From the NCBI GenBank assembly GCA_038046005.1, contig JBBSXB010000001.1:52769-116768 (forward strand): 64,000 nt of DNA, in the 5' to 3' direction. Each line of letters opens with the position of its first letter. Position 1 is the first letter of the stretch. The translations under genes and the position numbers were made by a program. Positions 32,444-60,825 of the stretch are shown one piece after another. The stretch comes from Nanobdellota archaeon (GTDB lineage: Archaea; Nanobdellota; Nanobdellia; Pacearchaeales; GW2011-AR1). The notes beneath the pieces are model-generated. The model was not told the origin of the DNA. It ran no database searches and saw nothing but the letters and a program-made list of their open reading frames with translations.

Positions 32444-32481
32444 TTACGAAACTTTAAAAATTCTTCCTGCGTGCTAGAGAA

Positions 32482-33342: not shown

Positions 33343-33389
33343 TAGGACAAATAAGTAATCTTTAAAAATAATCTTTTAATTTTATATTA

Positions 33390-34388: not shown

Positions 34389-34456
34389 TTATTGTTCTGT
34401 GAATTATACCTTACAAAATCCATAAACCTTTAAAATGCCTTATTCTTAATGTCTAA

Positions 34457-37420: not shown

Positions 37421-37468
37421 CTTTCTTAGATACATAAAGCTTTAAAATGAGTTTAGTTAAATTTTAAT

Positions 37469-39678: not shown

Positions 39679-39682
39679 CAAA

Positions 39683-42878: not shown

Positions 42879-42901
42879 TTTGTTATTAGAGTTAATATCG
42901 T

Positions 42902-43888
42902 TTAATGAATATTACTTTTTGAGTGTTGAATTTTTATTTTCCAGTAATCAATTGTTTTTTTTAATCCTTCCTCTGGTGAGACTGTCTGTTCCCAATGCAG
43001 GATTTTTTTTGCTTGCGTACTATCCAGAACTAAATAAGGCTGGTCTGACGCCAATGGTCTATTTGGGTATCCTGGAGGGAATTCCCTCAAGTGCAATTTG
43101 CTTTCAGGAAATCCTATAAGTTTAGCAATTTTCAGCGCCCACTCTTTATTTGTAATTCCTTTTCCCCCAGAGATATTAAACGCGCTTCCTTGAATGTTTT
43201 TGGTTTTCATGGCTAAAAGGTAAGAATTAACATGATCCTCAACATACATGTAGTCTCTTATGGAATCTGGAGCACCTATGTAGATATCTTTTCCTTTGAT
43301 CATCTCTGTTATGAGGTACTCGGTAAAAAAACCCGGATCGTATTTTCTTCCAAACGTGTTGCTATTTCTTAAAATGACCACATTGAAATTATAAACTTTA
43401 TTTAGCATCCTCATGTAAATATCCATTGCTGCTTTGCTTACAGCGTATGGACTTGAGGCTTCTAATGACATATCTTCTGTGAAAGGAGTAAACTCTTTTA
43501 TCCCATAAACTTCTGCTGTTGAGGCTACTACTAGCCTAACTTTTTCAGGGCCATAAAGCTCAAGAATAGCCTCAGCCATATTCACTGACCCGAGATAATT
43601 TACTTTCTGGTATGCAATAGGATGTTCAAAGCTTAATCTTACTGGGGATAAGGCTGCAAGATGAAAAACAACATCAGGATTAACTTTTTGAAGAGAGTTT
43701 TTTATGGAGGTATAATCTACAATGTCGCATACGATTATTTTTATTTTGTCTTTAATGTCTTCTATGCTTTCTAAATTTCTTCCGATTACATGCCTAACAA
43801 TTCCGAAAACTTCATGGCCTTCATTCACTAATTTATGGGCCAATTCGCTTCCTATAAAACCAGTGATTCCAGTAATCATAACTCTCAT
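42902..43888 (-). CDS. NAD-dependent NDP-sugar 4,6-dehydratase/epimerase (GDP-mannose 4,6-dehydratase-like)
   Basis: 328 aa. ITGITGFIGSELAHKLVNEGHEVFGIVR closely resembles the GMD N-terminus. YAVSKAA catalytic YxxxK. Confidence 0.65.
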   Translation of the reverse strand: MRVMITGITGFIGSELAHKLVNEGHEVFGIVRHVIGRNLESIEDIKDKIKIIVCDIVDYTSIKNSLQKVNPDVVFHLAALSPVRLSFEHPIAYQKVNYLGSVNMAEAILELYGPEKVRLVVASTAEVYGIKEFTPFTEDMSLEASSPYAVSKAAMDIYMRMLNKVYNFNVVILRNSNTFGRKYDPGFFTEYLITEMIKGKDIYIGAPDSIRDYMYVEDHVNSYLLAMKTKNIQGSAFNISGGKGITNKEWALKIAKLIGFPESKLHLREFPPGYPNRPLASDQPYLVLDSTQAKKILHWEQTVSPEEGLKKTIDYWKIKIQHSKSNIH

Positions 43889-43928
43889 GAGATTGAGTAA
43901 GACTTATGATTTATAAGCTTTATTGACA

Positions 43929-44408
43929 TCAAGTAATGTTTAACCTAGACAGCAAATTATCAAGATATTTTTTTGATCCTTCTATGTCAGATTCTAATGG
44001 GGCCCACGGGGCGAATTCTTTGTAGATTTTAGGGTCGTATGGGCCTTGGGTTATTTCCAAAATCACTGCAGGATTATCAATAACAACTAATGAGTGGAAA
44101 TTTTTTTCCGGGATGTAGACTAAAGATGATACATCCCTAGAAGATTCCGAGACAATTTCGTAGTTTTTTATATCTCCTTCGTCTGTGAAATAGATCGGAG
44201 CAAGCTTACCTCTGAGAACTAACCAGTATTCATCTAATCTTTCACCATGCCTATGGGGCCTGACGTAAGTTCCTGGAAGCATTGCATTTAGTAAAGGTCT
44301 TACTCCCGTGTAATCTGCTGGTTTCAAAGCTTTAGCCTTCCTTAACCGAGGGTCTTTTCTAGCTTCTTCTAACAAATCATCAATAATTTTTTGGTTGACT
44401 GATTCCAT
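43929..44408 (-). CDS. Cupin-fold protein, WbuC-like (found in O-antigen/LPS clusters)
   Basis: 159 aa. RPHRHG metal-binding-like motif in a small beta-barrel sized protein. Assignment tentative. Confidence 0.45.
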   Translation of the reverse strand: MESVNQKIIDDLLEEARKDPRLRKAKALKPADYTGVRPLLNAMLPGTYVRPHRHGERLDEYWLVLRGKLAPIYFTDEGDIKNYEIVSESSRDVSSLVYIPEKNFHSLVVIDNPAVILEITQGPYDPKIYKEFAPWAPLESDIEGSKKYLDNLLSRLNIT

Positions 44409-44504
44409 AAAAAGTCCTACAAAAATGAGTTTTTAAAGATTTGGACTTCTAAGAGTATATTCTAATTACACAATCTTTTTAAAGAATTATTAGTAAGGTA
44501 ATTT

Positions 44505-45215
44505 ATGATATTTAAAACAGCAGTGATTATTGCTGGGGGGAAAGGAGAAAGACTGGGAGATATTGGAGAAGGACTACCAAAACCACTTGTAAAAGTTGAA
44601 GGAAAACCAATTTTAGAAAGAATAATCTTGTGGTTGAAAAAGAATGGTGTGGAAAAAATTGTGATAGGGGTTGCCTACAAAAAAGAAATGATTAAAGATT
44701 ATTTTGGTAATGGTAATAGACTTGGTGTAAAAATAATTTACACAGAACATGATGAGAATGGGGGAACTGAAGACGCTTTTAGGACTGCAATAGAAAAGTC
44801 TAAGATTGATGATGAAAATTTTTACGCATTGAATGGTGATCAAATCACAGATCTTCAACTTGAAGGGGTTACAAATAAACATTTAGTTTCACACGCAACA
44901 GTAACCATGATTACCACTAATCTAAGGACCAACTTTGGAATTGTGCAGATTGATGACAAGAATAGAATTGCTAACCTAAAAGAGAAGGGAGAAGTGAAAG
45001 GATTGCTCATCAATACCGGAATTTATGTTTTCAATAAAAAAATAAAAAATTATTTGGTCGGGGGAAACATAGAAGAAAAGGCTTTTAGAAAGCTGATAGA
45101 GGAAAAAAACATGATTTCATTTTACTATGACGGGCTGTGGACCAGCTTTAATGACAAAAAAGAACTCGCAGTAGCTGAAAAAGCAATTAGGGAATTTAGC
45201 GGACTGATTGATTAA
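44505..45215 (+). CDS. Sugar-1-phosphate nucleotidyltransferase
   Basis: 236 aa. N-terminal AVIIAGGKGERLGD...GLPKPLV signature of NTP-transferase (RmlA/GlmU-N-like). Confidence 0.8.
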   Translation: MIFKTAVIIAGGKGERLGDIGEGLPKPLVKVEGKPILERIILWLKKNGVEKIVIGVAYKKEMIKDYFGNGNRLGVKIIYTEHDENGGTEDAFRTAIEKSKIDDENFYALNGDQITDLQLEGVTNKHLVSHATVTMITTNLRTNFGIVQIDDKNRIANLKEKGEVKGLLINTGIYVFNKKIKNYLVGGNIEEKAFRKLIEEKNMISFYYDGLWTSFNDKKELAVAEKAIREFSGLID

Positions 45216-46332
45216 AATGAAAATCGGAATTGTGGCAGACGGCCCAAAAATATCGGGAAGCATGAAGTATATATTACAGCTTTATTCTAGAATTAGAAAA
45301 AAAGAAAAAACTTCACTTTTACATTTGGCATATGAGGGCAGATTAGATTTAAAAGGCTTAGACGTTGAAGAATTAAAACCTATAAAACTACCTTTTTTTA
45401 GTTATTTTTTTAACTTTGGAATTTATTATCCGATAAAAACTTGCTTTAAGTCACTGTCAAATTCTTTTGATATTATTCACTTTTCAAGGCACTATCCATT
45501 TTTTATCCTTTGGCATAAAATTCTAACAAAAAAAAAGATAGTTATTACATCGCATGATCTTTGGAAGTTAAACCATAGATATTTATTATTTTTAACAAAA
45601 ATTCTTAAAAGAGTGGACAAAATAATTACTGTCTCCAATGCAACAAAAAAAGAGCTGGTAGATTTGGGGCTAAATGAAGAAAATATTGAAGTAATTTATC
45701 ATGGGGTTGATAAAACAATTTTTAAGCCAATAGGTAGAGATAAAGCATTTAATCTTTTAACTAAAACAAAACTTCATGACAAGGTAAAAATTTTAAAAAA
45801 TGCAAGTAAAATATTTTTAAGTGTGAGTAATGATACTGAAAGAAAAAATACATCTAGGGTGTACGAAGCATTTTCAAAATACCTCAAGAAGGATGATAAA
45901 GCATTACTAGTAAGAGTGGTCTCGGCCACTAACAAGAAAATTATAGAATCTCAGACTAAAAGATTCAGCAGTAATGTATTATTTTTGCAGGGATTGTCTG
46001 AGGAAGAAATTAGTTTGATGTACAATATTTCGGATTTGTTCGTTTTTCCATCAATTTGTGAAGGGTTCGGTATGCCTTTACTGGAAAGTATAAGCTGTGG
46101 AACCCCTTGTGTTACATCAAACTTCCAGCCGATGACCGAAGTTGTCGGTGAATCTGGGATTTTAGTGGATCCTTACGATGTTGATTCCATTTATCAAGGT
46201 CTAATTTTGTGCCTAAAGAACAGAGATGTTCTTTCAAAAAAATCTTTAAAAAGGGCAGAACTATTTTCATTAGATAAAACTTTTCTTAAAACGTACGAGG
46301 TTTACAAAGATTTACAACAGGCCACAAAATAA
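45208..46332 (+). CDS. Glycosyltransferase family 1/4
   Basis: 374 aa. FVFPSICEGFGMPLLESISCGTPCV E-x7-E region. Confidence 0.75.
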   Translation: MIKMKIGIVADGPKISGSMKYILQLYSRIRKKEKTSLLHLAYEGRLDLKGLDVEELKPIKLPFFSYFFNFGIYYPIKTCFKSLSNSFDIIHFSRHYPFFILWHKILTKKKIVITSHDLWKLNHRYLLFLTKILKRVDKIITVSNATKKELVDLGLNEENIEVIYHGVDKTIFKPIGRDKAFNLLTKTKLHDKVKILKNASKIFLSVSNDTERKNTSRVYEAFSKYLKKDDKALLVRVVSATNKKIIESQTKRFSSNVLFLQGLSEEEISLMYNISDLFVFPSICEGFGMPLLESISCGTPCVTSNFQPMTEVVGESGILVDPYDVDSIYQGLILCLKNRDVLSKKSLKRAELFSLDKTFLKTYEVYKDLQQATK

Positions 46333-46333
46333 A

Positions 46334-47389
46334 ATGAAAATTCTTATGATTGCTACATATTACTTGCCCCGAGTTGGGGGTGGAGAGGATACTATAAAAA
46401 ATTATTGCAGGATTTTTAAGAAAAAAGGGCATTATGTAGAGGTAATAACAAAAAAATATGATATGTCGCTTAAAGACACTGAAATAATTGAAGGTGTCAA
46501 GATTCATAGAGTCCCTTACCACAGAAGTAACAAGCTAGGATTGGTTAAATTTTGGAGATGGATGTGGAAAAATAGAGCGAAGTTTAAGGATTTTGATGTA
46601 GTCATGTACAATGATTTTTCAACTTTTTATTGGTATTTACCACTTAAATTTTATTTTAAAAAACCAGATGTTATTTTGTACTACGGGTATGAGGGTTTTC
46701 CGATAAAAATAAAACACAAAATATTAAGAAGAATTGCAAAAGAGTTTACAAAGAAAAGCATTAATGGAGGAAGATATCTTGATAAGTATTACGGATTTAA
46801 AACTGATGATTATATTTATGAAGGTGTAGGGGATATAGAAAAAGTTCCAGTTAGTAAGAAAAAAAATAAGGCGGTTTTTATAGGCGGTCTTAGAAAAGAC
46901 ACATCTATATTGGAATATTTGAAATTCTTGAAGATTTTGAAGCAAAATCATGGCATTAACCTTGGCTTAGATGTCTATGGTGGAGGAGATTTGGATAAAC
47001 TGGCAAAAACATATGCCAAAAATAATAAATTAAATGTTATTTTTCATGGAGTTGTTCCAAATGCAAAGAGGTTCATTCCAATGTATAAATACGGATTTGC
47101 AACTCAATGGGGTTCAATAATGGACTGCATGAGGTCTAGAACATTGATCTTTGCGCTTTGTAAACTTCCAATTACATTAGACTATGACAGAGAGATTCTT
47201 GATGAAGGGCGATATGGAATAATCAGTACAGATCCTGGGGAAATGGTTGATAAGTTTATTAAGTGTTACAAAAATGAAAAACTGTTTAAAGACATAACAG
47301 CTCAAGCTTATGACCACTCAAAAACAAGAACATGGAATAAAATAGCTGGAAAGATACTAACCATATTGGAGCAAGCCATCAAGAGTTAA
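46334..47389 (+). CDS. Glycosyltransferase-like protein (GT4 N-domain, divergent C-domain)
   Basis: 351 aa. N-terminal MKILMIATYYLPRVGGGEDTIKNY resembles the Glyco_trans_4 N-terminus. Confidence 0.45.
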   Translation: MKILMIATYYLPRVGGGEDTIKNYCRIFKKKGHYVEVITKKYDMSLKDTEIIEGVKIHRVPYHRSNKLGLVKFWRWMWKNRAKFKDFDVVMYNDFSTFYWYLPLKFYFKKPDVILYYGYEGFPIKIKHKILRRIAKEFTKKSINGGRYLDKYYGFKTDDYIYEGVGDIEKVPVSKKKNKAVFIGGLRKDTSILEYLKFLKILKQNHGINLGLDVYGGGDLDKLAKTYAKNNKLNVIFHGVVPNAKRFIPMYKYGFATQWGSIMDCMRSRTLIFALCKLPITLDYDREILDEGRYGIISTDPGEMVDKFIKCYKNEKLFKDITAQAYDHSKTRTWNKIAGKILTILEQAIKS

Positions 47390-47420
47390 TTTAAAACATT
47401 TTTAAGCGTTAAGATTTTAA

Positions 47421-48527
47421 TCAATCAGTTTTGTTAAAAAAATCATCCAAACAACCACACACTCTTTTCTGATCATCCAGAGTTAACTCACCATGAAGAG
47501 GTAGAGAAAGAAGATTGTTGAATAGTAAGCTAGAATTTGTTAGCCCCCCCATATTTTTCAGATTTGCAAACGCTGGTTGAGTATGAAGCGCAAACGTTCC
47601 TATTTGGGATTCTATACCCTCACTGTGCAGATAGGAAATCACAGAGTCTCGTATTCCGTTTTCTTTTAGGAGCACAGTATAGGATTGAAAATTATGTTTA
47701 TTCCCTTCTGAAACATATGGTATTGTAAGGTAGCCTTTTTCCTTTAAAAGTTGGTTATATGAAAACGCTTTTTCTATTCTTCCGGTCACAATTTTTTCTA
47801 ATTTTTTTAATTGTTCCAAACCTATTGCTCCAAGGATGTTGCTAAACTTATAATTTGATCCCAAGGTTACAAATCGACCTTCTTCCATCCCAAAATGTTT
47901 GAAAGAATGCATTTTATTGTAAAGAATCAAATTGTCGGTGGTTATCATCCCCCCTTCACCAGTAGTAATTACCTTCCTGGGATGAAGACTAAAACAGGTA
48001 AGATCAGCAAGCGAACCCACCTTACACCCATCCAATTCTGACCCAAGGCTACATGCAGCATCTTCAATCAAAGGGATCCCAGCATTTTTTGCAAAGTCAT
48101 AGATTTCTTTGTCTAAAGGATTTCCCCCCCATGATACTGGCATAATTGCTTTTATTTTTGGAGTAATAGCTTCCTTTATTGCTTCGAGGGTTACGTTTCG
48201 TGATTTGACATCAACGTCAACAAGAATTGAATCGGCTCCAACAAGCATTACAGCTTCTGCTGTTGCAGGGTAGGTAAAATCTGGCATTACTACTTCATCT
48301 CCAGGGCCAATATTAAGAACTCTTAATGCTAGTTCAAGAGCAATGGTACAATTTGGAACCGCCACAGCATATTTTGCACCGACACTTTTTGCAAATTCTT
48401 CTTCAAATTTTTTAGTCACAACACCTTCAGTCAAAAATTTAGAGTCAAAAACTGCCTTTACTGCATTCAACTCTTCATCCCCCATTGTGGGTCTTGATAA
48501 GTGTATGTATTTTTGATTCTGTCCCAT
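47421..48527 (-). CDS. DegT/DnrJ/EryC1/StrS-family PLP-dependent sugar aminotransferase
   Basis: 368 aa. Characteristic family sequence, including the SxHxxK-like Lys region. Confidence 0.85.
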   Translation of the reverse strand: MGQNQKYIHLSRPTMGDEELNAVKAVFDSKFLTEGVVTKKFEEEFAKSVGAKYAVAVPNCTIALELALRVLNIGPGDEVVMPDFTYPATAEAVMLVGADSILVDVDVKSRNVTLEAIKEAITPKIKAIMPVSWGGNPLDKEIYDFAKNAGIPLIEDAACSLGSELDGCKVGSLADLTCFSLHPRKVITTGEGGMITTDNLILYNKMHSFKHFGMEEGRFVTLGSNYKFSNILGAIGLEQLKKLEKIVTGRIEKAFSYNQLLKEKGYLTIPYVSEGNKHNFQSYTVLLKENGIRDSVISYLHSEGIESQIGTFALHTQPAFANLKNMGGLTNSSLLFNNLLSLPLHGELTLDDQKRVCGCLDDFFNKTD

Positions 48528-48589
48528 TGGTTCTTTAAAAGACTACTATTTAAAAGGATATCTGTTTTGAGGACACAAATGTTTAAAAT

Positions 48590-49366
48590 ATGTATAATCT
48601 ACAAAAAATAATGAAGAATAACCCTTCAAATCTCAAGCAGGTATGGGAAGAATATTACGAAGAGGAAAGTGACACTGCAATAAAAGATAAGCCTTTTTTC
48701 TTGCTGGAAACAGAAACGATAGAAAAAGAAGTTGGAAAAATTGCAGAGAATAAAAAAAAGTTGAGTATCTTGGAGTTAGGATGTGGAACTGGCTTTTTAG
48801 CAAAAAGATTGATAAAAACTGTCTTCAAAAATCAAGAGTACACTTACACTGGAGTAGACATATCAAATAAGGCAATTGATAAAGCAAAAAAAAGAAAAAT
48901 ACCCAAGACTTTTTTCATGGAAGCTGATTTTTTTAATTTTTTTGAGAAAAGCACAAAAAAATATGATTTAATAATCTCCCAGAGATCCATAATGGCATTA
49001 TTAAAAAAGGAAGAGCAACTAAAACTTTTAGGTTTAATTAACTCTAGGCTGACAGATAAGGGCATCGGACTGTTTACAGAGTGTCTACATGAAGCTTCTG
49101 AAGAAATAAATGATTATCGAAAACAATTAGGGATTGAGCCATTTAAAAAAGTTTGGCACAGTAGATACCTGAGAATTGACGAAATAAAACAAATTTTTGA
49201 AAAATACAAGATTGTTGACTTTTGCTCTACTTACTGGCTAATAACAAGAATTATCTACCCTTATTTTAAAGAACCAAAACATAACACCCGTTTGTCTAAA
49301 GTTGTAGCAGAGTTCCCAGAGTCGGGAAAATATGGGCTGGTTAAACTAATAATTGTTCAAAAATGA
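48590..49366 (+). CDS. Class I SAM-dependent methyltransferase
   Basis: 258 aa. LELGCGTGFLAKRL motif I. Confidence 0.7.
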   Translation: MYNLQKIMKNNPSNLKQVWEEYYEEESDTAIKDKPFFLLETETIEKEVGKIAENKKKLSILELGCGTGFLAKRLIKTVFKNQEYTYTGVDISNKAIDKAKKRKIPKTFFMEADFFNFFEKSTKKYDLIISQRSIMALLKKEEQLKLLGLINSRLTDKGIGLFTECLHEASEEINDYRKQLGIEPFKKVWHSRYLRIDEIKQIFEKYKIVDFCSTYWLITRIIYPYFKEPKHNTRLSKVVAEFPESGKYGLVKLIIVQK

Positions 49367-50244
49367 AATCTATTTTGATAACTGGCGGAAGCGGTTTAGT
49401 TGGAAGTAATGTTGCTAAATTTTTTAATAATAAAGGTTATAAAATTTTTACGGTTGATTTGAAAGAAAGTTCATTTAACAACCATATTGTGTGTGACTTG
49501 AGCAAAAAAGAAAATTTAGTAAAGCTGCCAGAGAAAGTTGATTATGTTTTTCATTTTGCGGCGCATGTGGATGAGAAAGATGAAAATAAGGAGTATTTAC
49601 TAAGAAATAACGTACTTTCTACATTAAATGTATTAGAATATGCTCTTAAAAATAAGGTTGAAAAAGTTGTTTATTCCTCAAGCAGTGCAGTCTATGGAAA
49701 GACTGAAGAGTACCCAATAAAAGAAGATTTCTCAAAAAAGCCCCAGTCAATTTACGGAATATCAAAATATTTTGGAGAAGAACTTTGTAATCTCTATCGG
49801 AAAAGAGGGTTGCAAATAATATCATTCAGATTAGGTTATGTTTTGGCTCCAGTAATCCCAGAAAGGTATTTTATTTACAGAATTATGAAAAAACTAAACA
49901 ATAATGAGTGTATCACAATCACAAATGGAGTCAAGAATAGCATGTCATTTGTTGATGTGGAAGACATAGGGGCTTTTTGTGAGGAAGGGTTGAATAAAGA
50001 CCTAACTGGGAATTTTAATCTGACAGGCCAAAGAGAAGTGAATTCAAAAGAGGTCATAGATCTTCTAGTTAAAATGTTTAAAGAATATTCTGGAGAAATT
50101 AAAGAGGAAGAAAATAATTCAATCATGAGAAATTGTTTTTCCAATGAGAGACTTTACTCGACGTTTAATCAGAGGTATAGGCTCGGTATTGAGGATTCTT
50201 TAAACAGAATAGTCGCTAGTTTTAAAGACGGTCTAACGGAGTAA
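49363..50244 (+). CDS. NAD-dependent epimerase/dehydratase family protein
   Basis: 293 aa. ITGGSGLVGSNV and YGISKYFGE (YxxxK). Confidence 0.75.
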   Translation: MKSILITGGSGLVGSNVAKFFNNKGYKIFTVDLKESSFNNHIVCDLSKKENLVKLPEKVDYVFHFAAHVDEKDENKEYLLRNNVLSTLNVLEYALKNKVEKVVYSSSSAVYGKTEEYPIKEDFSKKPQSIYGISKYFGEELCNLYRKRGLQIISFRLGYVLAPVIPERYFIYRIMKKLNNNECITITNGVKNSMSFVDVEDIGAFCEEGLNKDLTGNFNLTGQREVNSKEVIDLLVKMFKEYSGEIKEEENNSIMRNCFSNERLYSTFNQRYRLGIEDSLNRIVASFKDGLTE

Positions 50245-51277
50245 ATCTTGCTTTTAAAGGAACCATATATTTCATGAATATAACTTCTGCAGGAGTTTTC
50301 ATCTTTGTATAGAGTTTGTCTGTAAGTGAAAAATGGGTGACTCTGTTCCCAAACTTAACACTACTTGCATTTGCTACAGTGATCAAAAGAACATCTGAAG
50401 AAGAGCCTTCGATATTTGAGATTACAGTTTTTGGATCTTGTGTTAATAAGATTTTGAATTGATAGTCTCTTGTGGACAGAACATCTTCCCTCGAAGAAGC
50501 ATCTTGTCTTGTGTCAATAGTATAACCACTGTATTTATTAAGATCACGACCAAATTCTCCTAAAAAGTTGGACATCAAGTTTAATTTTTCTTGTATATCC
50601 AGATTTTTATAAGAAGAAAAACCTTCAACCACTTTTGCAGGATTACCTCTAGCAAGCGAGTTTGGGAGGACATCTTTTGTCACATTACTCTGGAAAAGAA
50701 CAATTGCCCTATCTCCGATGGTTACTCCAGGAGAAACATAAACCGAACCTGTAAGCCAAACATCATTTCCTATAGTGACGGGCGCAATAGAATTAACAAC
50801 GCATCCTTCCAATAGTTCTCCATGGTATCCATGAGAGTATATCTCTGAGCGAGCCCCAATACCAACATTATTACCAATTGTTAACCCTCCAGATGAATTA
50901 AGAATAGCATCGCTACCTACCCAGAAATTATGGCCTATTGAAAGAGGTAAGTGACCTTGAAATCTAACTCCGTCCTGGACTGTCGCATAATCACCAATAG
51001 ATAATTTAGGAAGGTAAATCTTACAATTTTCCCACACATCACAAAAATCCCCAAGACTCAATGATTCAAGGTTAATTTTTCTAGAAGAAACAACATTAAC
51101 TCCTCTCCTGATTCTGGTCCCATCACCAACATAAATTTTCTCTCCAGCTAGTGAAACTCCATCTTCAATTATGACATCTTTTCCAATGTATAAATTGGCT
51201 GCTTCAATGTAAGCTCGCTTAGACACTTTTGCAGAATTATCAACGTATGAATTCGTTGCCTTTATATTTTGGGGCAT
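50222..51277 (-). CDS. Left-handed beta-helix (hexapeptide-repeat) acyl/acetyltransferase with ~120-aa C-terminal extension of unknown function
   Basis: 351 aa. Many [LIV]-G-x4 hexapeptide repeats in residues about 20-230. C-terminus has no recognisable motif. Confidence 0.6.
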   Translation of the reverse strand: MPQNIKATNSYVDNSAKVSKRAYIEAANLYIGKDVIIEDGVSLAGEKIYVGDGTRIRRGVNVVSSRKINLESLSLGDFCDVWENCKIYLPKLSIGDYATVQDGVRFQGHLPLSIGHNFWVGSDAILNSSGGLTIGNNVGIGARSEIYSHGYHGELLEGCVVNSIAPVTIGNDVWLTGSVYVSPGVTIGDRAIVLFQSNVTKDVLPNSLARGNPAKVVEGFSSYKNLDIQEKLNLMSNFLGEFGRDLNKYSGYTIDTRQDASSREDVLSTRDYQFKILLTQDPKTVISNIEGSSSDVLLITVANASSVKFGNRVTHFSLTDKLYTKMKTPAEVIFMKYMVPLKARFTPLDRL

Positions 51278-51331
51278 AGATTAAAAGGAGTAACGGCATT
51301 TAAAAAATTATGTGTTTTTAAAAATGGTTAA

Positions 51332-52330
51332 TTAAGAATTTTTCGATTCATCTCTCCATTGAATTAATTTTGTTAAACCATAAGGTAAACTGTATACTGG
51401 TTTGAACCCCAACATTTCTTCAGTTTTTTTAGTACTACCAATCCTGTTTTTCACAAGAAGTCTTGCGTCACCTTCACTATAGGGGTTAAATTTAACAGTC
51501 AAATCTGAATTCTTCAATTTAAGTATTAGGTTGCATAATTCTCTAATTGTTGTTTGAACACCCGTACCAACATTAAAAAATTCATCGGATAAAGGTGATT
51601 TAAGCGCAACAATATTGTACCTGGCAACATCTTCAACATAAACAAAATCGTAAGCCTGGGTGCCATCTCCATTTATAATTGGTTGTTCATTTGCATCTAT
51701 TTTGTTAAGCATTATAGGCACAACTCCAGAATAAACCGAGTCTTGATTTTGTCCTGGGCCATAAACATTCATGTACCTTAACCCAACATAATCTAAACCA
51801 AACCTATCATGAAAAGCTCTGCACATTGCTTCACCAGAAATTTTAGTAGCCCCATAAAAATTCCTATTGTTGAAAGGATGATTTTCACTCATTGGAATTT
51901 CAACTGCATCACCATAAACAGAAGCGGAAGAAGAGTAAATAAGTTTACTTATCTTATTTTTTACACAAGATTCAAGAACATTAAACGTTCCTTCTGTATT
52001 TACCTTAAAGGCAGTTCGCGGAAAATCTTTGCAGTGAAGAAGCCACATAGCCGCCAAATGAAAAACATAGTCTACCCCTATCATTGCATCATCGAGGGTG
52101 TCTAGATCATTTATGTTGCCACCATTAGGGTATATAACGCAACGTGAATCCAACAATAATTTTTCTAGATTTTCCATTTTGCCTCTAGAAAAATTATCAT
52201 AGACTACTACTTTGCCAACATTCTCTTTAAGAAGTTCAGAAACAACATGTGAACCAATGAAACCAGCACCACCAGTGACCAAGATTTTTGCCCCATTCAG
52301 ATTGTTTTCCATTTTAGTGAGATTAAACAC
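51332..52330 (-). CDS. UDP-sugar 4-epimerase-like NAD-dependent epimerase (GalE/WbpP family)
   Basis: 332 aa. VTGGAGFIGSHV and YGATKISGE (YxxxK). The alternative start at Met7 (52312) is also plausible. Confidence 0.8.
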   Translation of the reverse strand: MFNLTKMENNLNGAKILVTGGAGFIGSHVVSELLKENVGKVVVYDNFSRGKMENLEKLLLDSRCVIYPNGGNINDLDTLDDAMIGVDYVFHLAAMWLLHCKDFPRTAFKVNTEGTFNVLESCVKNKISKLIYSSSASVYGDAVEIPMSENHPFNNRNFYGATKISGEAMCRAFHDRFGLDYVGLRYMNVYGPGQNQDSVYSGVVPIMLNKIDANEQPIINGDGTQAYDFVYVEDVARYNIVALKSPLSDEFFNVGTGVQTTIRELCNLILKLKNSDLTVKFNPYSEGDARLLVKNRIGSTKKTEEMLGFKPVYSLPYGLTKLIQWRDESKNS

Positions 52331-52388
52331 TTTGCCTAGTAAAAAAAGAATGTTTAAAAGATTTTCGGTATAAAAACGAATGTATTAG

Positions 52389-54278
52389 CTAAATGTTAGT
52401 TGTAGAAACATTCATCTCTTTATACACTCCATTATCAATATAAAGATTATGCCAAACTTCAAAACAGAGCATGTTCCAAATGAGGTTGTATTTTCTTGTT
52501 AATTTTGGAGAAGGTGGAGAAGAAAGTATTTTTTTTATGTAATCTTGATTGATCATTCCCTTTTTAACTAAAACTCCATCAATCAATTTTTGTTGTGCTA
52601 AATCCCTCACTTCACTTATATAAGTTTCAAAATTAGTTGGACCAAAACCTTGTTTAGGTCGATTGATGGAATTTAACCCGATTTTTTCCCGCATAACTTT
52701 TTTTAGAAGATATTTTCCCACACCTCCATTGATTTTTAATGAATGGGGAATCGAAAAAGCAAAATTTATTAAAGTTTTGTTTAAAAAAGGTACTCTGGAT
52801 TCTAGAGAATTAGCCATAGATGTAACATCGTCAACGAATAGGAAATCATCAACCATCTTGACCTTAAAGTCTGCTTTTAACATTTGAGTTAAAACATCAT
52901 TATTGCCCTTGAAAAATTGCTGGTATTTTGATGTTAAATTACTCCATGTAAAATTTTTAAGGGTTTTTCCATATATATCTGAGTATTCTTCTGGAAAGAT
53001 TTTGTCTAGCGACTTTGAAAGCAAGTAGAAATCCGCCTTTTTATTTTGTTTGAGTAGAGAAGACAAAACTTGGCCCAATTCTGCAAAAGAAAGATCATCG
53101 GAACTATTTTTTATTTTGGAAATAAGCAGATCAAATTGCTCTTTAGAAAGAATAACCTTTTGGTCGTTGTTCAAAGCATATAAATACTTGTGATAGTATC
53201 CTGCAAAAAGTTCGTCAGAACCAAGTCCACTCAATACAACTTTAACATGCTTAGATGCTTCCTTTGCAATATAATAAGGATATAAGTTTCTTTTAGGAGT
53301 ATCAGCATACCAAATAAGCTTAGGAAGTTCTTCCAAAAAATTGTCTGAGATTATTATGTTTCGATGATCCACATTTAACTTTGACGCCATTTCTTGTGCA
53401 TGCTTAAATTCATCATTATCTTCGTTGAAACCCATACAAAAAGTTTTTATTTTGTGGGATGAAAATTTAGAAGCATAATAAGTTATTGTACTACTATCTA
53501 TCCCACCAGAAAGGTAGACACCAATTGGTACGTCACTTATTAAATGGGATCTTACTGATTCTTCTAAAAGTTTGGACATATTTTTTTCATAATAAGAAAA
53601 ATCGTAGTTTGTTTCCTTAACTTTTAAATCCCAATATTTAACTATTTTTACCCCATTCTCGGAAATTTTTATAAAGTGGCCCGGAAGTAATTTTTTTATT
53701 CCTTTAAAAAGTGTTCCCTCGAAGGGGATAAATCTGAAGTTCAAAAATTCGTGTGCCGCATTAAGGTCCACTTCCCTTTTTATTTCATCATTTTGTAATA
53801 TTGCTTTAATTTCTGAAGCAAAAAATAACTTGTTATTTTGCAGGATATAGAACAGAGGTTTGATCCCAACAGGATCTCTTACTAGGTATAAATTTTTTTT
53901 GCTGGTGTCCCATAATGCAATAGCAAACATTCCTTCAAAAAGATCAAAGCAGTTCTCCCCATATTGCTCATAAGCATGCACTATTGTTTCCGTATCGGAA
54001 TGAGTTTTGAAAATATGGCCTTTCTTTTCCAATTCCCATTTTAATTTCAAAAAATTATAAATTTCTCCATTATACACTACCCAGATTGTACCATTCTCAT
54101 TAGAGATGGGTTGTTTTCCATTAGAAAGATCGATAATACTCAATCTTCTGTTACCCAGTCCAACAATTTTATCAGAATAATATCCGTAATCATCTGGCCC
54201 CCTGTGAACTAGGGAGTTGGTCATTTTTTTAAGAAGAGGCATATCTTCTGTCCCATAAAAACCAGCAATTCCGCACAT
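52389..54278 (-). CDS. asnB: Asparagine synthase (glutamine-hydrolysing) family amidotransferase
   Basis: 629 aa. N-terminal MCGIAGF Ntn-Cys and SGGIDSS PP-loop motif. Confidence 0.85.
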   Translation of the reverse strand: MCGIAGFYGTEDMPLLKKMTNSLVHRGPDDYGYYSDKIVGLGNRRLSIIDLSNGKQPISNENGTIWVVYNGEIYNFLKLKWELEKKGHIFKTHSDTETIVHAYEQYGENCFDLFEGMFAIALWDTSKKNLYLVRDPVGIKPLFYILQNNKLFFASEIKAILQNDEIKREVDLNAAHEFLNFRFIPFEGTLFKGIKKLLPGHFIKISENGVKIVKYWDLKVKETNYDFSYYEKNMSKLLEESVRSHLISDVPIGVYLSGGIDSSTITYYASKFSSHKIKTFCMGFNEDNDEFKHAQEMASKLNVDHRNIIISDNFLEELPKLIWYADTPKRNLYPYYIAKEASKHVKVVLSGLGSDELFAGYYHKYLYALNNDQKVILSKEQFDLLISKIKNSSDDLSFAELGQVLSSLLKQNKKADFYLLSKSLDKIFPEEYSDIYGKTLKNFTWSNLTSKYQQFFKGNNDVLTQMLKADFKVKMVDDFLFVDDVTSMANSLESRVPFLNKTLINFAFSIPHSLKINGGVGKYLLKKVMREKIGLNSINRPKQGFGPTNFETYISEVRDLAQQKLIDGVLVKKGMINQDYIKKILSSPPSPKLTRKYNLIWNMLCFEVWHNLYIDNGVYKEMNVSTTNI

Positions 54279-54329
54279 TGAAATGAGAATCCTAAAGGCT
54301 TTTTAAAGTATGTTATTACTAAACGCCAC

Positions 54330-55691
54330 CTAATTAAAAGGCAGCTGATATTTTTTAAACCGCGACCATAGAACTAACATTCCCAAATAAAAAAGATTGC
54401 TGATTACTGTAGAGACAGTAACTCCATACACTTTGGCTAGGCTTCCAGAAGAAGCTAAAAGAAAAATAGCTGCTATGTTTAGTAAGATATTTAAGATTAT
54501 TGAAAAGACTAGTGAAAAAATAACTTTTCGCAGTTTTCCCTGTGAAATGTAAAGAGAAGAATAAAGTGAGATTATCGGGGATATCAACAGCACGACAGAG
54601 AATATTCTAAGAATGTTTGCTGATGAAATGTATTCTTCGCCAAAAATGATTTTTACTAAAAGAGGAGAAAAAACTAAAGTGAATAAAAATGCGAATATTC
54701 CAAGCAAAATGGTAATATTACGAGCTTTTTGAAACCCTTTATATAATCTTTTGCCTTTCAATTTTATAAATAGGGGAAAAAGAACACTTGAGAATGTTAA
54801 CAGAGGGATAGCAGAAGTAATCAAACTCAAAGCTGCCCTGTAGTAGGCAATAAATTCTGCGTCAACGAATCTCCCGAGAATTATTATGTCTATATAACCA
54901 AACAAAAGCCCAGAGAGAGTTAAAGCAGATAAAGATATGATAAATTTGTTAACAATACTCTTTTCATTTTTTTTCAATCCATCATTTCTTTTTTTTAGAA
55001 AGTTAATTTCTTTTTTGGCACTAAAAAAAATATACAAAAACACAGTCAAATAGGAAAAAGAAAGTCCAAGGATTACTGAGGCTATCAAAATATCCGAAGA
55101 AAGACGTGATATAAAAAGTAGTATTAGTAATGGCACTATGATAAGACGTAAAACTTGAAAAATAATTTCTTGGAAAAGACCTTTTTTAAAATTGTTTAAA
55201 GCCGGAAAAAGGCTTGCAAAAAGAGAATTCAGAGAATTAAAAGCGATATAAAAGCTTCCAGCAATTAAAGCATAAAATATGGGTTTTTCATAGTAATAAT
55301 TTGCTATAAAATATGATAATAAGATCATAATGAGGATTAATGAGGAGGTTAGAATAACTTTAGTTTTTAATAAGTAAGAAAAATATGCTTTAGACTTTTT
55401 TTCAGCCCTTGATGAAACGACGAATTTTATTAAAGTTTGCCCAATACCGAGATCAGAAAATAATGCAAAAAGAGATATTGTTGAAAGTGCTAAAGAATAC
55501 AACCCAAAAAGTTCAGGCATTAACAATCTTGCAGTAATTATCGTAAATATCAGAGAGCCTATTTTAGAAACTAAAATTGTTGCGGTGGTCCAGCCTGAAT
55601 TTTTAATTGCCTGGCCGGTATTGCCAGAAAAATTTCGCTTCTTTATCCTTATCAACACATCTTGCAAAAAAAAAGGTGTTTTTTTTAACAT
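54330..55691 (-). CDS. Polysaccharide/oligosaccharide flippase (MOP superfamily, Wzx-like)
   Basis: 453 aa, about 12-14 TM, no soluble domains. Confidence 0.6.
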   Translation of the reverse strand: MLKKTPFFLQDVLIRIKKRNFSGNTGQAIKNSGWTTATILVSKIGSLIFTIITARLLMPELFGLYSLALSTISLFALFSDLGIGQTLIKFVVSSRAEKKSKAYFSYLLKTKVILTSSLILIMILLSYFIANYYYEKPIFYALIAGSFYIAFNSLNSLFASLFPALNNFKKGLFQEIIFQVLRLIIVPLLILLFISRLSSDILIASVILGLSFSYLTVFLYIFFSAKKEINFLKKRNDGLKKNEKSIVNKFIISLSALTLSGLLFGYIDIIILGRFVDAEFIAYYRAALSLITSAIPLLTFSSVLFPLFIKLKGKRLYKGFQKARNITILLGIFAFLFTLVFSPLLVKIIFGEEYISSANILRIFSVVLLISPIISLYSSLYISQGKLRKVIFSLVFSIILNILLNIAAIFLLASSGSLAKVYGVTVSTVISNLFYLGMLVLWSRFKKYQLPFN

Positions 55692-55756: not shown

Positions 55757-56551
55757 TCACTCTTCAATTTTTCTTATAAGGTCTGTAAATGCAGGTCTTG
55801 TGATTAAGACACCTGCGGTGATTCCTATTAATGTTGTAACTGCAAAACCTTTAAGCAAGCCTGCTCCAGCCCACAATAAAGGCAACAATGAAACAAAAAC
55901 AGTGAAATAAGAACCGAGTATAATTGCAAATGCTCTCTTCATTTTTTCTTTAAGACTAAGGACCTTTCCATGTTTAGCCTCATCTATGACCACAATTTGC
56001 TGATCGACTCCAGTACCAATAGTTGCAAGTATTCCTGCAATTCCGGGAAGGTCAATATTCCATTTTATCAAAGCAGCAATTCCCAGAATTATTATCACTT
56101 CAGAAAAGCTTGTCAACAACAATGCAAGAGAAGTTTTGATTTTTTTGTATCTTACAAAGATTATTATAGAGACTGCCAAGAAAGAGGCGATGCCTGTAAT
56201 AAAAATGGCCCGTGTAAAATCCTTTCCATCATTATCTCCTTGGTACATACATCCGCTGCCAAGATGAACAAAGTAAATTCTTCTTAGTGCACATTCTGTG
56301 GATAAGTTTATCGCAGCGCTTACATTTGACTGTAGAGTTTCCTCTTTATGTTTTTCACACCAGTCAATGTTGGGTTTACCAGTTTTGCCAATAGCATTTA
56401 TAACAACTGATGGTTTTGTTTCATCTAAGAAAGAGGCTAGATCTTTAATATTCGTTGGATCGACAATTTCTCGGTCAACTATTTCATAACCTAAACTGCT
56501 AGAAATTCTCGTACCCAAAAATCCTTTGCCAAAAACAATTTGTTCATCCAT
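55757..56551 (-). pseudogene. Chimeric ORF: N-terminal ~110 aa of an RmlD-type reductase fused in frame to a diverged copy of the last ~150 aa of SecD
   Basis: Residues 1-110 align with the RmlD N-terminus (IVFGKGFLG...PSVVINA...). Residues about 113-264 are about 60% identical to the SecD C-terminus encoded at 57654..58150. The junction lies at GK(D/E)FT, shared by both parents. Confidence 0.6.
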
Positions 56552-57573
56552 CTTTCAAAGGTCTCCACCAAGATTCATTTTCTCTATACCATTCCACTAA
56601 ATTTTTTAAACCTGTGTTAAAATCTGAATGTTTTGGCTCAAAACCTAGCCCTCTAAATTTTGAATCATCTATAGAATATCTAAAATCATGACCCTTTCTG
56701 TGATCTACTCTTTGCACCATTTCTTCACCAACCCCAAATATATCGAGAAGTGTTTTAGTAACGTCAGTATTTGTTCTCTCATTTCTTCCCGCAATGTTAT
56801 AAATTTCTCCAGGTTTTCCTTTTTGGGATAGATGTCATATTGCTCTACAGTTATCCTTTACATCCAGCCAATCTCTAACATTTAATCCAGGATTTTCTAG
56901 AGACCACATCAAGGGAACTTTCTTTCCATCAATAAGATGTGTTATAAACAAAGGTAAAAATTTTTCAGGAAATTGAAAAGGGCCGTAGTTGTTTGCACTT
57001 CTTGTCACAATTACTGGAAGGCCATGAGTATAAAAATAAGATCTTGCAAGATGCTCCGCTGCTGCCTTTGTTGCAGAATAAGGGCTTCTAAGGTTTAGCA
57101 CATCACCTTCTTTTGAAGATGGGCTAAACTCATCTAGACTTCCATACACTTCGTCTGTTGAAACTTGTAAAAAAAGACTAACATTACTTTTCAAAGAAGC
57201 TTCTAATAGATTACGCGTACCCCTAACATTTGTTTCAACAAAAGAAGAAGAATCACCAATACATCTGTCAACATGAGTTTCTGCCGCAAAATGAAAAACT
57301 ATATTAGGTTTATATTCATTAAAAATTTCAGACACTTCTGGTGAACAAATGTCTACTTGCTTGAATTTATATCTTGATCGCTTCCCAGTCCCAAGGCCTA
57401 ATATGCATGCACTCTAAATTTCTTCCCTGCCCCGCGTATGTTAGATTATCAACATTGCAAACTTGGTTTTCTTCTTTAAATTCTGGGTCGTGAAGTAAAT
57501 ACTCAATAAAGTTGCTCCCTATAAACCCGCTTCCGCCTGTGACTAGAATTCTTGGCATTTTAAAAGCCAACAA
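56544..57573 (-). pseudogene. rmlB: dTDP-glucose 4,6-dehydratase (rmlB) disrupted by one frameshift and one in-frame TGA
   Basis: N-terminal piece (ILVTGGSGFIGSNF...NVDNLTYAG) at 57367..57573. Central piece (HFAAETHVDR...STDEVYG...YSATKAA...NNYGP) at 56835..57335. In-frame TGA at 56835..56837, after which the C-terminus (KPGEIYNIAGRNE...DHRKGHDFRYSID...WW) continues in the same frame to 56544. A +1 shift sits in a G-run near 57384..57394. Confidence 0.7.
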
Positions 57574-57653
57574 AAAAAACTATTTAAAGTATTATGTAGC
57601 AGGAATATATATTATTCACTTCTAGATTTTATTCTACAAAATCAGCTATTTTT

Positions 57654-59174
57654 CTATTCGTGTATCCTTCTAACAATATCTGCAAATGCGGGCCTCGTGA
57701 TCAATATTCCAACAGTAACACTTAGTATAGTTGTTAAAGCAAATCCTTTTAACATTCCTGCCCCTGCCCAAAATAAAGGGAGCATTGCTGCTATAATTGT
57801 GAAGAAAGCTCCAAAAATAATGAACAGGGCCCTTTTTATCCTTTCTTTTGCACTTAAATGTTTATTAGAAGTAGCTTCATCTAGTATAACAATTTGGTCG
57901 TTTACCCCCGTTCCCATTCCAGCTATTATTCCCGCGATACTTGGAGCGTCTAAATTCCAGCCTATTAAAGCAGCAATTCCCAAAGTTATGAATGCTTCTG
58001 AGAACATTGTTAAGATTACAGAAAGGGTTAATTTTATTTTCCTGTATCTAACAAATAAAATAATTGAGATTATTACAAATACTAAAATTCCCAAAAAGAT
58101 TATGTTCTTGGTAAACTCTTTCCCAAGATTAGGAGATAAAGTGTCCAGCTTGACAATTTCCAGTTTATAAGGAAGACTCCCAGTTATCAGTATAGTTTGA
58201 AGATTATGCATTGATTCTTCAGCAGCAGTATAAGCATCTTCTTCTGTTGCACCAGAGCCAGAACCAGAAATAGATATTTGTGTTGTGACTCTTCCCTTAA
58301 GGCTGTCCCCAATTAAAAGAGTGTCAACAAGATTGTCATCTAGATAAAGGTCTAAATTTTTAGACAAATAACTTCCCTGCGCAGTTAAGTTTACGCTAAG
58401 ATTTTTTGTTAAGTCAGCATGTCTTTGTGCTGCTTGTTCACTTAGATAAACTGAAAATCTGAAACTACAGAAAAATCCTCCAGATTGCGAGGGAAAACAG
58501 CTTTCCACTCCTGCACAAGTTGCATCATTTCTGCAAACAGAGGTTATGTCTTTGTCTCCGCCTACAAAAGCGGTGTCGTTCCCTATTTTAGCTTCAAATT
58601 TCCCTTGTTGGGAAATAAGAGTTTCCAAATCTTTAGGTGTTGCACCAGCTATTTCAATTAATACAAAATTATTTCCGCTCAAATCTGAAACTGGAGCAAT
58701 AACCACATCCGCAATTCCATAAACATTAAACCTATTACTGATTACATCCACAAGATCTGTCATTTCTGAAGAAGTAAGATCTTTCTCCTTGGCTTTTATC
58801 AAAGCCCTAGACCCTCCAGAGAGATCAAGTCCCGTCTTGATATTTGTTTTAGGGATAGAAGAGACTGTTAAACCCAAAGATTGATTAGAGTAAACAATAA
58901 ACTCTCCCTCATTTGTTGTTATTATTGTTTTTAAATATTGATTTGAATAATTTTTAGCGCCGACAATTTTGGAAAAATCTTCTACACTAGAAATTTTTTC
59001 ACCATCAATAAAAGTAATAACCTGGCCCTGCCTAAGCCCCTCCGATAATTCTGTGGAATTTCTTTCAACACTTGTTATCACAACCCCCTTTTCTAAAGAC
59101 TTCCAAGGAGCGATTATTAAAAAGGCCAAAAGTAAAACAGTTAGCAAAATCCAAATCCTAAGCCCTAATTTCAT
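57654..59174 (-). CDS. secD: Protein-export membrane protein SecD
   Basis: 506 aa. N-terminal TM, large periplasmic domain, C-terminal 5-TM region with GTGVNDQIVILDE-type motif. Confidence 0.85.
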   Translation of the reverse strand: MKLGLRIWILLTVLLLAFLIIAPWKSLEKGVVITSVERNSTELSEGLRQGQVITFIDGEKISSVEDFSKIVGAKNYSNQYLKTIITTNEGEFIVYSNQSLGLTVSSIPKTNIKTGLDLSGGSRALIKAKEKDLTSSEMTDLVDVISNRFNVYGIADVVIAPVSDLSGNNFVLIEIAGATPKDLETLISQQGKFEAKIGNDTAFVGGDKDITSVCRNDATCAGVESCFPSQSGGFFCSFRFSVYLSEQAAQRHADLTKNLSVNLTAQGSYLSKNLDLYLDDNLVDTLLIGDSLKGRVTTQISISGSGSGATEEDAYTAAEESMHNLQTILITGSLPYKLEIVKLDTLSPNLGKEFTKNIIFLGILVFVIISIILFVRYRKIKLTLSVILTMFSEAFITLGIAALIGWNLDAPSIAGIIAGMGTGVNDQIVILDEATSNKHLSAKERIKRALFIIFGAFFTIIAAMLPLFWAGAGMLKGFALTTILSVTVGILITRPAFADIVRRIHE

Positions 59175-60124
59175 TTTATTCCTCTTTTGTCACAGTACCA
59201 TTTAATTATACTGGCGTTTGTGAGCCATGTGTTGAAGATATCTGCGCATAAACCGATAGCCAGTATTAAAAAAATCTGCCTAAATGAATCTGGAAGACCG
59301 GTGACTAGGAAAAAAGCAGGAAGTACGGCTGCCAAGGCAGTTAAAGTCATTAATATACCTGTTTTGAATGCACCGTAAATTCTTTTGTTCAAAGAATCTT
59401 CATGAGATTTTAATGCCCTAGATGTTAGCAATATGTCTGTATCAACAGAATAACCTATAAGCATTAAGAAAGCTGCAATTCCTGCGGCAGATATTTTTAC
59501 CTCGAAAAAGTTTAATACTGCTAAAGGCATAACTATGTCTGCAAAGACTGCAAATATGACTGCAATGCTTGGAATAAATGTTCTAAAAAGAAATAATATA
59601 ACAAAAGACATTAAGATAAATGATATTATAAGAGCCATTATTAATTGCTTGTAAAAACCTTGACTCAAAGTTGATCCGGTAAACTCTATTGTAGAATTTG
59701 CATCTGTTAATTCATAACCAAGTACTTTTTCAATTTCTAGTTTTAATGTTTGTGGTTCTGCCGAGCTTTCAATTATTAGTGCAATTTGTTTTTGGGATGT
59801 AATATCACTAAGACTTGTGAATGATACATCTGGAAATTTTGTTTTTAGTCCTGTTTCTAAGACTTCCCTGTTTATGTTTCCTTGCAATGTTATGGATGAC
59901 CCACCTGAGAGAGAAACATCTTTGTAAATGAAATCGCCATGATTTTGATAGAATATAACTAAATAGACCAGACATAAAGCCAGGACAATTAGAGGAATTA
60001 AAAGCAGAGTCTTATGGTGTTTGTCATACCAATGTTTATGTTCTTTGAATGTTTTATGTTTTTGCTCTTGCGCATGCTCTTTTTTTTCTTCTGTTTTTTC
60101 CGCGTGTTGCTCGCTGTTTTCCAT
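59171..60124 (-). CDS. secF: Protein-export membrane protein SecF
   Basis: 317 aa. ATGA-overlapped with secD (archaeal secF-secD order). Confidence 0.85.
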   Translation of the reverse strand: MENSEQHAEKTEEKKEHAQEQKHKTFKEHKHWYDKHHKTLLLIPLIVLALCLVYLVIFYQNHGDFIYKDVSLSGGSSITLQGNINREVLETGLKTKFPDVSFTSLSDITSQKQIALIIESSAEPQTLKLEIEKVLGYELTDANSTIEFTGSTLSQGFYKQLIMALIISFILMSFVILFLFRTFIPSIAVIFAVFADIVMPLAVLNFFEVKISAAGIAAFLMLIGYSVDTDILLTSRALKSHEDSLNKRIYGAFKTGILMTLTALAAVLPAFFLVTGLPDSFRQIFLILAIGLCADIFNTWLTNASIIKWYCDKRGIK

Positions 60125-60152
60125 TTTTTAATATAATAAATTGCCTTATTAA

Positions 60153-60223
60153 ATGCGCCGGCCGGGAGTCGAACCCGGGCAATTTGCTTGGAAGGCAAAT
60201 GTCATACCGTTAGACCACCAGCG
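60153..60223 (-). tRNA. tRNA-Gly (anticodon TCC)
   Basis: Cloverleaf folded by hand: acceptor GCGCTGG/CCGGCGC, anticodon arm TTTGC-CTTCCAA-GCAAA, T-arm CCGGG-TTCGACT-CCCGG, discriminator A. Confidence 0.85.
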
Positions 60224-60278
60224 CGAGTAAATTACAAATATAGCAGCGAAAAACAAGTTTTAAAGGTTTTCTGTAAAG

Positions 60279-60707: not shown

Positions 60708-60740
60708 TCTACGAAGATGAAAATTTATTTTAAATAATTA

Positions 60741-60815
60741 TGCCCGAGACAGGAGTTGAACCTGCGACCCCAAGGTTAGGAACCTTGTGCTCTATCCAGG
60801 CTGAGCTACCCGGGC
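60741..60815 (-). tRNA. tRNA-Arg (anticodon CCT)
   Basis: Acceptor GCCCGGG/CTCGGGC, D-arm GCTC-AGCCTGGAT-AGAGC, anticodon arm CAAGG-TTCCTAA-CCTTG, T-arm GCAGG-TTCAACT-CCTGT. Confidence 0.85.
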
Positions 60816-60825
60816 TTAAACTAAA

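Follow-up and report, generated by a model that had tools for sequence, protein, structure and literature searches.

The chimeric rmlD-secD reading frame of a Nanobdellota archaeon: a probable scar of illegitimate recombination between two haplotypes of a glycosylation island

The window analyzed in this work is a stretch of 64,000 nucleotides from contig JBBSXB010000001.1 (positions 52,769 to 116,768; assembly GCA_038046005.1), which belongs to a metagenome-assembled genome (MAG) of a low-GC (~33%) member of the Nanoarchaeota (DPANN). Our subject is an open reading frame (ORF) of 264 codons that begins as a homolog of rmlD and ends as a homolog of secD. On the minus strand the genes follow in the order tRNA-Gly, secF, secD, three rmlB-like ORF fragments, the 264-aa ORF and a flippase gene. 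The locus was compared mainly with three relatives: L004 (GCA_964363625.1), L011, and L032/L033 (ENA ERZ27253369; GCA_900218215.1). We use "type A" for the secF-secD allele that is resident in the window and present in L011, and "type B" for the allele shared by L004 and the secD fragment of the chimera. The features of the locus are as follows (TM, transmembrane segment).

60154..60224, minus strand: tRNA-Gly(TCC), conserved left edge; identity to L004 recovers to ~83% here
59171..60124, minus strand: type-A secF (317 aa), 90% identical at the amino acid level to L011 and 52% to L004
57654..59174, minus strand: resident full-length type-A secD (506 aa, MEK6917468.1), 93% amino acid and 86% nucleotide identity to L011, 64% amino acid identity to L004
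57616..57645, minus strand: type-B secD relic, ~30 nucleotides of the last codons, just 3' of the type-A secD stop
56544..57558, minus strand: rmlB (dTDP-glucose 4,6-dehydratase-like) pseudogene, in three ORF fragments
55757..56551, minus strand: chimeric ORF (264 aa, MEK6917464.1), rmlD-like 5' part plus secD 3' part
56228..56551, minus strand: rmlD-like 5' stub, codons 1-108, the Rossmann N-terminal half only
56213..56233, minus strand: recombination joint, located by a three-way codon comparison
55757..56227, minus strand: type-B secD 3' fragment, codons 109-264 and the stop, equivalent to TM2-TM6
54330..55691, minus strand: flippase (Polysacc_synt, 453 aa), which opens the present island 65 nucleotides 3' of the fragment stop
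31664..55691, ~24 kb: present glycosylation island

According to Pfam, the chimera consists of an RmlD_sub_bind/Epimerase region (residues 22-109), whose match ends at position 111 of the 287 positions of the profile, followed by the membrane domain SecD_SecF_C (PF02355, residues 109-249, E 4.5e-14). The first-pass annotation, made by reading the sequence alone, had likened the N-terminal ~110 residues to RmlD, and this is borne out: an intact RmlD-like protein of 278 aa encoded by L004 (P0074, 10001-10837) shares 82% identity with the first 114 residues. The best match of the stub in the PDB is 4qqr, a 3,5-epimerase/4-reductase of the NRS/ER type, and its dN/dS against L004 is 0.115. Residues 1-108 thus correspond to the Rossmann N-terminal half of RmlD and of the NRS-ER reductases (PDB 4qqr, 7jid, 3sc6) and retain the Gly-rich dinucleotide-binding motif (FGKGFLG, residues 7-13; the intact homolog from L032 also has GKGFLG). 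The YxxxK motif (FYAKTK, around residues 126-130 of P0074), however, lies beyond the breakpoint, so that the chimera, unlike these enzymes, has neither the catalytic motif nor the substrate-binding domain.

The second part of the protein, residues 107-264, aligns with residues 349-506 of the resident SecD without gaps (93/158 identical, 59%, E 3e-64; ~62-65% identity in DNA), in agreement with the first-pass claim that its C-terminal ~150 residues are about 60% identical to, and collinear with, SecD. Alignment with Thermus SecDF (3aqp, residues 266-413) equates this region with TM2-TM6, i.e. five membrane segments and not the four counted initially. The 156 C-terminal residues retain the conserved Asp of TM4, as GTGVDQQIV is aligned to AAVD340GNV of the Thermus protein. 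Nonetheless, the chimera is not a SecD, because it lacks TM1 and the P1 head domain and is instead joined to an unrelated cytoplasmic fragment.

The joint between the two parts is sharp. A three-way comparison at the codon level places the crossover within codons 108-111 (56219-56230), upstream of which the ORF tracks rmlD and downstream of which it tracks type-B secD, and the fusion is in frame. At this point rmlD and type-B secD have the pattern AAT nnn GGA AAR GnT TTy ACn in common, including ~7 nucleotides of microhomology (GGAAARG); between rmlD of L032 and secD of L004 the exact common string is GGAAAAG, followed by TTT. The peptide that spans the joint reads ...YQGDNDGKDFTR, and the motif N-x-G-K-x-F-T occurs at the breakpoint in rmlD, in type-B secD and in the resident secD alike, so that the initial placing of the breakpoint on a common GK(D/E)FT pentapeptide was right.

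Nine contigs encode this 264-aa protein, and over both the joint and the lesions of rmlB, contigs assembled from three separate runs (SRR32696709, SRR32696707 and SRR32696678) match the window at 100% identity; the joint is therefore real and does not reflect an assembly or sequencing error. It is true that contigs of the L004 type (L008 and L009) come from runs SRR32696708 and SRR32696710, whose numbers adjoin those of the chimera-bearing runs, and that metagenome assemblers do produce chimeras, so that a contig stitched together from reads of two co-occurring strains had to be considered. Such an artefact is exceedingly improbable. The joint and its flanks are identical in the contigs of the three runs and in the deposited MAG; a mis-join is unlikely where the joint has only ~7 nucleotides in common with the parents; and the secD fragment, being 84% identical to its counterpart in the co-occurring L004 type, could not have been built from reads of the latter. 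Mis-assembly, which the first-pass annotation had kept in reserve, is thereby excluded. The adjacent run numbers do indicate that the partner lineages probably co-occur, if, as the accession numbers suggest, the runs belong to a single project.

What the secD part derives from is revealed by its nearest relative. The fragment is 96% identical in amino acids (152/158) and 84% in nucleotides to SecD of L004 (P0228), which a word-indexed homolog search with the chimera missed and which was recovered via gene context. Its nonsynonymous divergence from this gene (dN) is 0.023 and its synonymous divergence (dS) 1.14, practically the dS of the backbone (1.19). The resulting dN/dS of 0.02 is comparable to that of the C-terminus of the working resident SecD against L011 (0.019). 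Because dN/dS is so low and dS equals that of the backbone, the divergence of the fragment has accrued almost wholly in a functional secD, and its time as a fragment has been short. Among 228 SecD C-termini, 120 surpass the resident copy in closeness to the fragment. In a neighbor-joining tree of 63 sequences the fragment and L004 are sisters in 100/100 bootstrap replicates, as are the resident copy and L011, and in 100/100 the two pairs are divided by splits that have 10 or more tips on either side. Judging from these comparisons, the two secD segments are different alleles (xenologs) that exchange between lineages has united.

This disposes of the idea, proposed in the first-pass annotation, that the 3' end of the resident secD was duplicated locally long ago and that the fragment is the copy, drifted meanwhile to ~60% identity. 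The gap-free, collinear match of 59% and the location of the two segments on either side of the rml remnants are what one would expect of such an event, but the fragment is 96% identical to SecD of another genome, its dN/dS of 0.02 is that of sequence evolved in a working gene, more than half of the C-termini compared are nearer to it, and the tree parts it from the resident copy in every replicate. Moreover, a copy drifting to 41% amino acid divergence would stay neither open nor 96% identical to an ortholog. We regard this origin as scarcely conceivable.

The two alleles can be told apart at the TM4 motif around the equivalent of D340, which is VDQQI in type B and VNDQI in type A; among 228 sequences from Nanoarchaeota, VNDQI occurs in 104 and VDQQI or IDQQI in 65. 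It was observed that not only secD but also secF falls into two deep classes (SecD 64% and SecF 52% amino acid identity; window 57654-60124 compared to L004 6468-8938). The resident secF-secD is 48-74% identical to L004 per window of 100 nucleotides (~62-64% overall) and 81-93% identical to L011, whereas the flanks of the locus are ~80-87% identical to both, and the NUDIX, tRNA, RpoN and ABC genes are ~80-90% identical to L004. The dN/dS of the secF/secD border genes is 0.09-0.26. It is conceivable, though in our view improbable, that the two secFD types are ancient allele classes which persist side by side in Nanoarchaeota because diversifying selection acts on the glycan island linked to them.

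The layouts found in relatives supply the context for the joint. In the sister lineage comprising L004 and L005-L007, with flanks as in the window, the layout is intact: tRNA-Gly, secF, secD (506 aa), rmlB (337 aa), rmlD (278 aa), rmlA (290 aa) and a flippase (wzx). In L032/L033 a type-A secF-secD is followed by rmlB and an L004-like rmlD; this arrangement is collinear with window positions 60160..56214 at 80% identity, and the match ends at the joint. A haplotype that corresponds to the left half of the joint thus exists in nature; we call it D-type. On the right, secD is directly followed by a flippase gene, at a distance of 70-600 nucleotides, in at least nine relatives (L013, L014, L016, L017, L019, L022, L023, L025 and L030). 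As this neighborhood is common in relatives, the succession of fragment, 65 nucleotides and flippase resembles a natural 3' border of secD. The first-pass annotation had seen here the footprint of a recombination that placed sugar-nucleotide genes into or next to secD. A recombination footprint with rml remnants it is; the insertion of sugar genes into secD does not hold, given that secD-rmlB-rmlD-rmlA is the intact layout in L004/L005 and that rml genes lie downstream of secD in L032 as well. Likewise, the chimera does mark the edge of the glycosylation island on the side of secD, and the two secD-like segments do flank the rmlB pseudogene, both lesions of which are located between them.

Taken together, these data suggest to us, with a probability of roughly three in four, that the chimeric ORF is a scar, left when two haplotypes of a replacement glycosylation island bordered by secD were joined illegitimately through microhomology. 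One parent would have been of the D-type (as in L032/L033 and partly in L011), with the order tRNA-Gly, secF(A), secD(A), rmlB, rmlD. The other, for which we infer an S-type layout, would have had secF(B), secD(B), a flippase and the island. Codon ~108 of rmlD would have been joined in frame to codon ~351 of secD(B) at the microhomology GGAAARG/TTT. At only ~62% identity, type-A and type-B secD are too diverged for a homologous crossover, hence the need for an illegitimate join. Ordinary homologous recombination most likely took care of the opposite end, for which tRNA-Gly (60154-60224) or the far flank of the island are the candidate anchors, so that the event as a whole would amount to homology-facilitated illegitimate recombination (HFIR). 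Afterwards rmlB, deprived of rmlD and rmlA and redundant with the dehydratase and reductase of the island, would have begun to decay, which accounts for its two lesions, and the fusion ORF is most likely open only because the event is recent.

Two directions of this exchange can be considered. Either a cassette of ~3.9 kb, secF(A)-secD(A)-rmlB-rmlD', took the place of secF together with the 5' two-thirds of a type-B secD that was native, or an island of at least 25 kb, carrying the 3' end of the donor's type-B secD, replaced the 3' part of rmlD, rmlA and the old island. The import of the cassette is slightly favored by sequence divergence: the backbone of the window has a dN of 0.059 to L004 and of 0.114 to L011, and the dS of the fragment equals that of the backbone, whereas the dS of the type-A block to L011 (0.77-0.84) is lower than that of the backbone (1.22). 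The import of the island is supported by the L004-like character of the rml remnant, and also by the consideration that selection would favor cargo such as a new glycan island.

The order of genes in L004 admits of a different origin of the same joint. In an ancestor with that layout, an unequal exchange could have duplicated the segment from the secD 3' end through rmlB to the 5' part of rmlD, creating a native rmlD5'::secD(B)3' joint, and later homologous exchanges would have swapped the region downstream for the present island and the upstream secF-secD for type A. Indeed, with secD preceding rmlD, tandem duplication or excision of a circle yields precisely an rmlD5'-to-secD3' joint, the microhomology sites lie 1.9 kb apart, the dS of the fragment to L004 is that of the backbone and rmlD' is L004-like too, as expected if both halves are native, and the edges of the type-A block, at tRNA-Gly and in the 5' part of rmlB, are clean and look homologous. 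We consider this scenario unlikely all the same, as it requires three events instead of one or two, its duplicated intermediate is seen in no genome, and the D-type haplotype capable of supplying the entire left half already exists in L032.

Several observations weigh against a simple join of two haplotypes. The S-type parent, recognizable by a type-B secD of at least 90% identity next to a close relative of the flippase, was not found in the GTDB species genomes, in JGI metagenomes or in a search of 5.8 billion proteins, and the nearest relatives of the flippase are only 57-59% identical. Two flippase homologs were tried as representatives of this parent and rejected: P0241 is not next to secD, and the secD adjoining P0243 (L030) is distant. 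The rml remnant is a mosaic, in which the 5' part of rmlB is L011-like, its center L004-like and rmlD' ~82% L004-like; hence there was more than one exchange, and a one-step history is unprovable. The argument for direction is weak, because dS values of ~1-1.2 are near saturation and the backbone compared spans just 3.8 kb. HFIR has been demonstrated in bacteria and not in DPANN archaea. Finally, an open frame of 264 codons beside a decayed rmlB could hint at selection.

Compared to intact relatives, the rmlB pseudogene has exactly two lesions, a +1 frameshift at ~57390-57394 and a TGG>TGA nonsense mutation at 56835-56837, identical in three assemblies. Its center (56700-57300) is 92.5% identical to L004, which exceeds the backbone, and ~75% identical to L011 and L032; it resembles a patch of recent conversion between two lineages that probably co-occur, and the TGA codon lies inside this patch. 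The type-A block, which starts at the conserved tRNA-Gly, has its right edge in the 5' part of rmlB, at ~57300. The rmlB pseudogene and the rmlD stub are decaying leftovers; the remnant is redundant, because the island has an intact nucleotide-sugar set of its own. As for the intact counterparts, the operon "RmlD" of the relatives (L004 8995-11706; L032 2691-4247) matches best the bifunctional 3,5-epimerase/4-reductases of the NRS/ER type (4qqr, 7jid), the L004 operon has no rmlC and that of L011 reads rmlB-rmlC-rmlD, and in L032 rmlB and the reductase are fused into a single ORF of at least 519 aa.

It is noteworthy that the type-B secD relic (...TDLIRKIEE*) is found between the stop of type-A secD and the conserved promoter region of rmlB in three lineages, namely in the window, in L011 (~11530-11565) and, in its clearest form, in L032 (~2605-2635). 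None of 5000 shuffles matched the score of the L032 relic against the 3' end of L004 secD. This suggests that an earlier join inside secD had already substituted the type-A cassette for a type-B secFD, at a locus with the order secD(B)-rmlB. The relic points to a second, older illegitimate join in type-B secD, and thus to a border that has been hit repeatedly.

The possibility that the fusion has become a functional new gene deserves separate attention. Its product could be a membrane-anchored Rossmann fragment or, if translation starts at the internal Met102, a TM2-TM6 module that acts with SecF or modulates SecDF. The frame of 264 codons is intact in DNA of 33% GC, the conserved Asp and the 96% identity to SecD have been kept, and the ORF is probably still within the transcription unit of rmlB, whose promoter region is 94% conserved. 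A scan with bacterial promoter and terminator models returned 6 sites where 7.8 were expected and is uninformative for an archaeon. On the other hand, the chimera forms one cluster in which every copy is identical, it is known from one population only, and no second rmlD::secD fusion exists among 368 homologs, both Pfam domains occurring together only in its own cluster. One further candidate, P0045, with 92% query cover, proved to be an incomplete SecD whose alignment had been extended spuriously across gaps. Moreover, the protein has neither TM1 and P1 nor the catalytic motif of the short-chain dehydrogenase/reductase superfamily, and the native topology of SecD would probably demand the export of an N-terminal domain of 110 aa that has no signal sequence. 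The intactness of the ORF is not evidence of selection, because zero lesions in 795 nucleotides have P ~0.2 at the density observed in the neighboring, decaying rmlB (2 per 1015 nucleotides). A function of its own is therefore very unlikely. We are equally doubtful of a variant in which the chimera or the Met102 product, made from the rmlB promoter, would meet the foreign type-A SecF and SecD as a hybrid or dominant-negative subunit, a relic of the allele swap of an essential gene, and be kept by selection. Most likely, the 264-aa ORF is a non-functional recent remnant.

The island that begins with the flippase contains genes for glycosyltransferases, AglB/STT3, an aminotransferase, a methyltransferase and an Asn-synthase-like protein. 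The genes located individually are the following.

34457-37420: AglB/STT3, 987 aa
39683-40942: C-methyltransferase
40939-41784: full-length RmlD
42902-43888: 4,6-dehydratase
43929-44408: DUF6016
44505-45215: NTP-transferase

On the opposite side of the locus (60154-60909), tRNA-Gly is accompanied just upstream of secF by a NUDIX gene (60279-60707), a tRNA-Arg and a tRNA-Leu. Both the window and L004 have the NUDIX gene; it is absent from L011, which retains the tRNAs and has an additional gene for a 282-aa protein among its ABC/FtsX genes.

The chimera described in this work is of value chiefly as a clean, datable marker of the exchange of chromosomal DNA between these small-genome DPANN archaea across backbones that are only ~80-87% identical. 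It shows secF-secD to be the recombination anchor of a hypervariable island for N-glycosylation or surface sugars, and even the essential secFD to be swapped as whole alleles that are 36-48% diverged in protein. The sequence of the joint also provides a handle by which island haplotypes can be tracked in the source metagenomes. In the NCBI database, MEK6917464.1 is labelled "NAD-dependent epimerase/dehydratase family protein"; this annotation should be corrected to that of a gene-fusion remnant.

The locus resembles two known phenomena. Hyper-divergent border genes are a mark of replacement flexible genomic islands, such as those for the O-chain or the S-layer, including an archaeal case (Lopez-Perez et al. 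2014, PMC4033161). As in these islands, position and core neighbors (tRNA-Gly-secF-secD) are constant here while the sugar genes differ and their function remains similar, as seen in the window locus itself (W in our comparisons), L004/L005, L010, L011, L013, L030 and others, and the secF/secD border is far more diverged than the adjacent backbone. In E. coli, gnd offers a related case, as it hitch-hikes with the rfb O-antigen region. The present locus departs from replacement islands in that the divergence of the border goes beyond synonymous changes to the protein-level differences of the two allele classes, that whole secFD alleles are swapped from distant lineages, that one border is illegitimate and has left an in-frame fusion, and that backbones of ~80-87% identity lie outside the within-species comparisons of PMC4033161.

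The second phenomenon is HFIR, which typically leaves 3-10 bp of microhomology at the junction and is coupled to a deletion, as summarized in PMC3240628 from the work of de Vries & Wackernagel (2002) and Prudhomme et al. (2002). The joint described here would be of the same kind, with ~7 nucleotides of microhomology joining foreign DNA, a deletion of resident DNA and a conserved anchor on the opposite side. The experiments that established HFIR used transformable bacteria and conjugation in E. coli, whereas here we infer it from the sequence of a DPANN archaeon, and the segment of 3.9 kb or at least 25 kb is larger than the ~1 kb typical in experiments. The locus thus combines known kinds of structure, a replacement glycan island and a scar of illegitimate recombination, and is to be regarded not as a new system but as a clear example of both in DPANN archaea.

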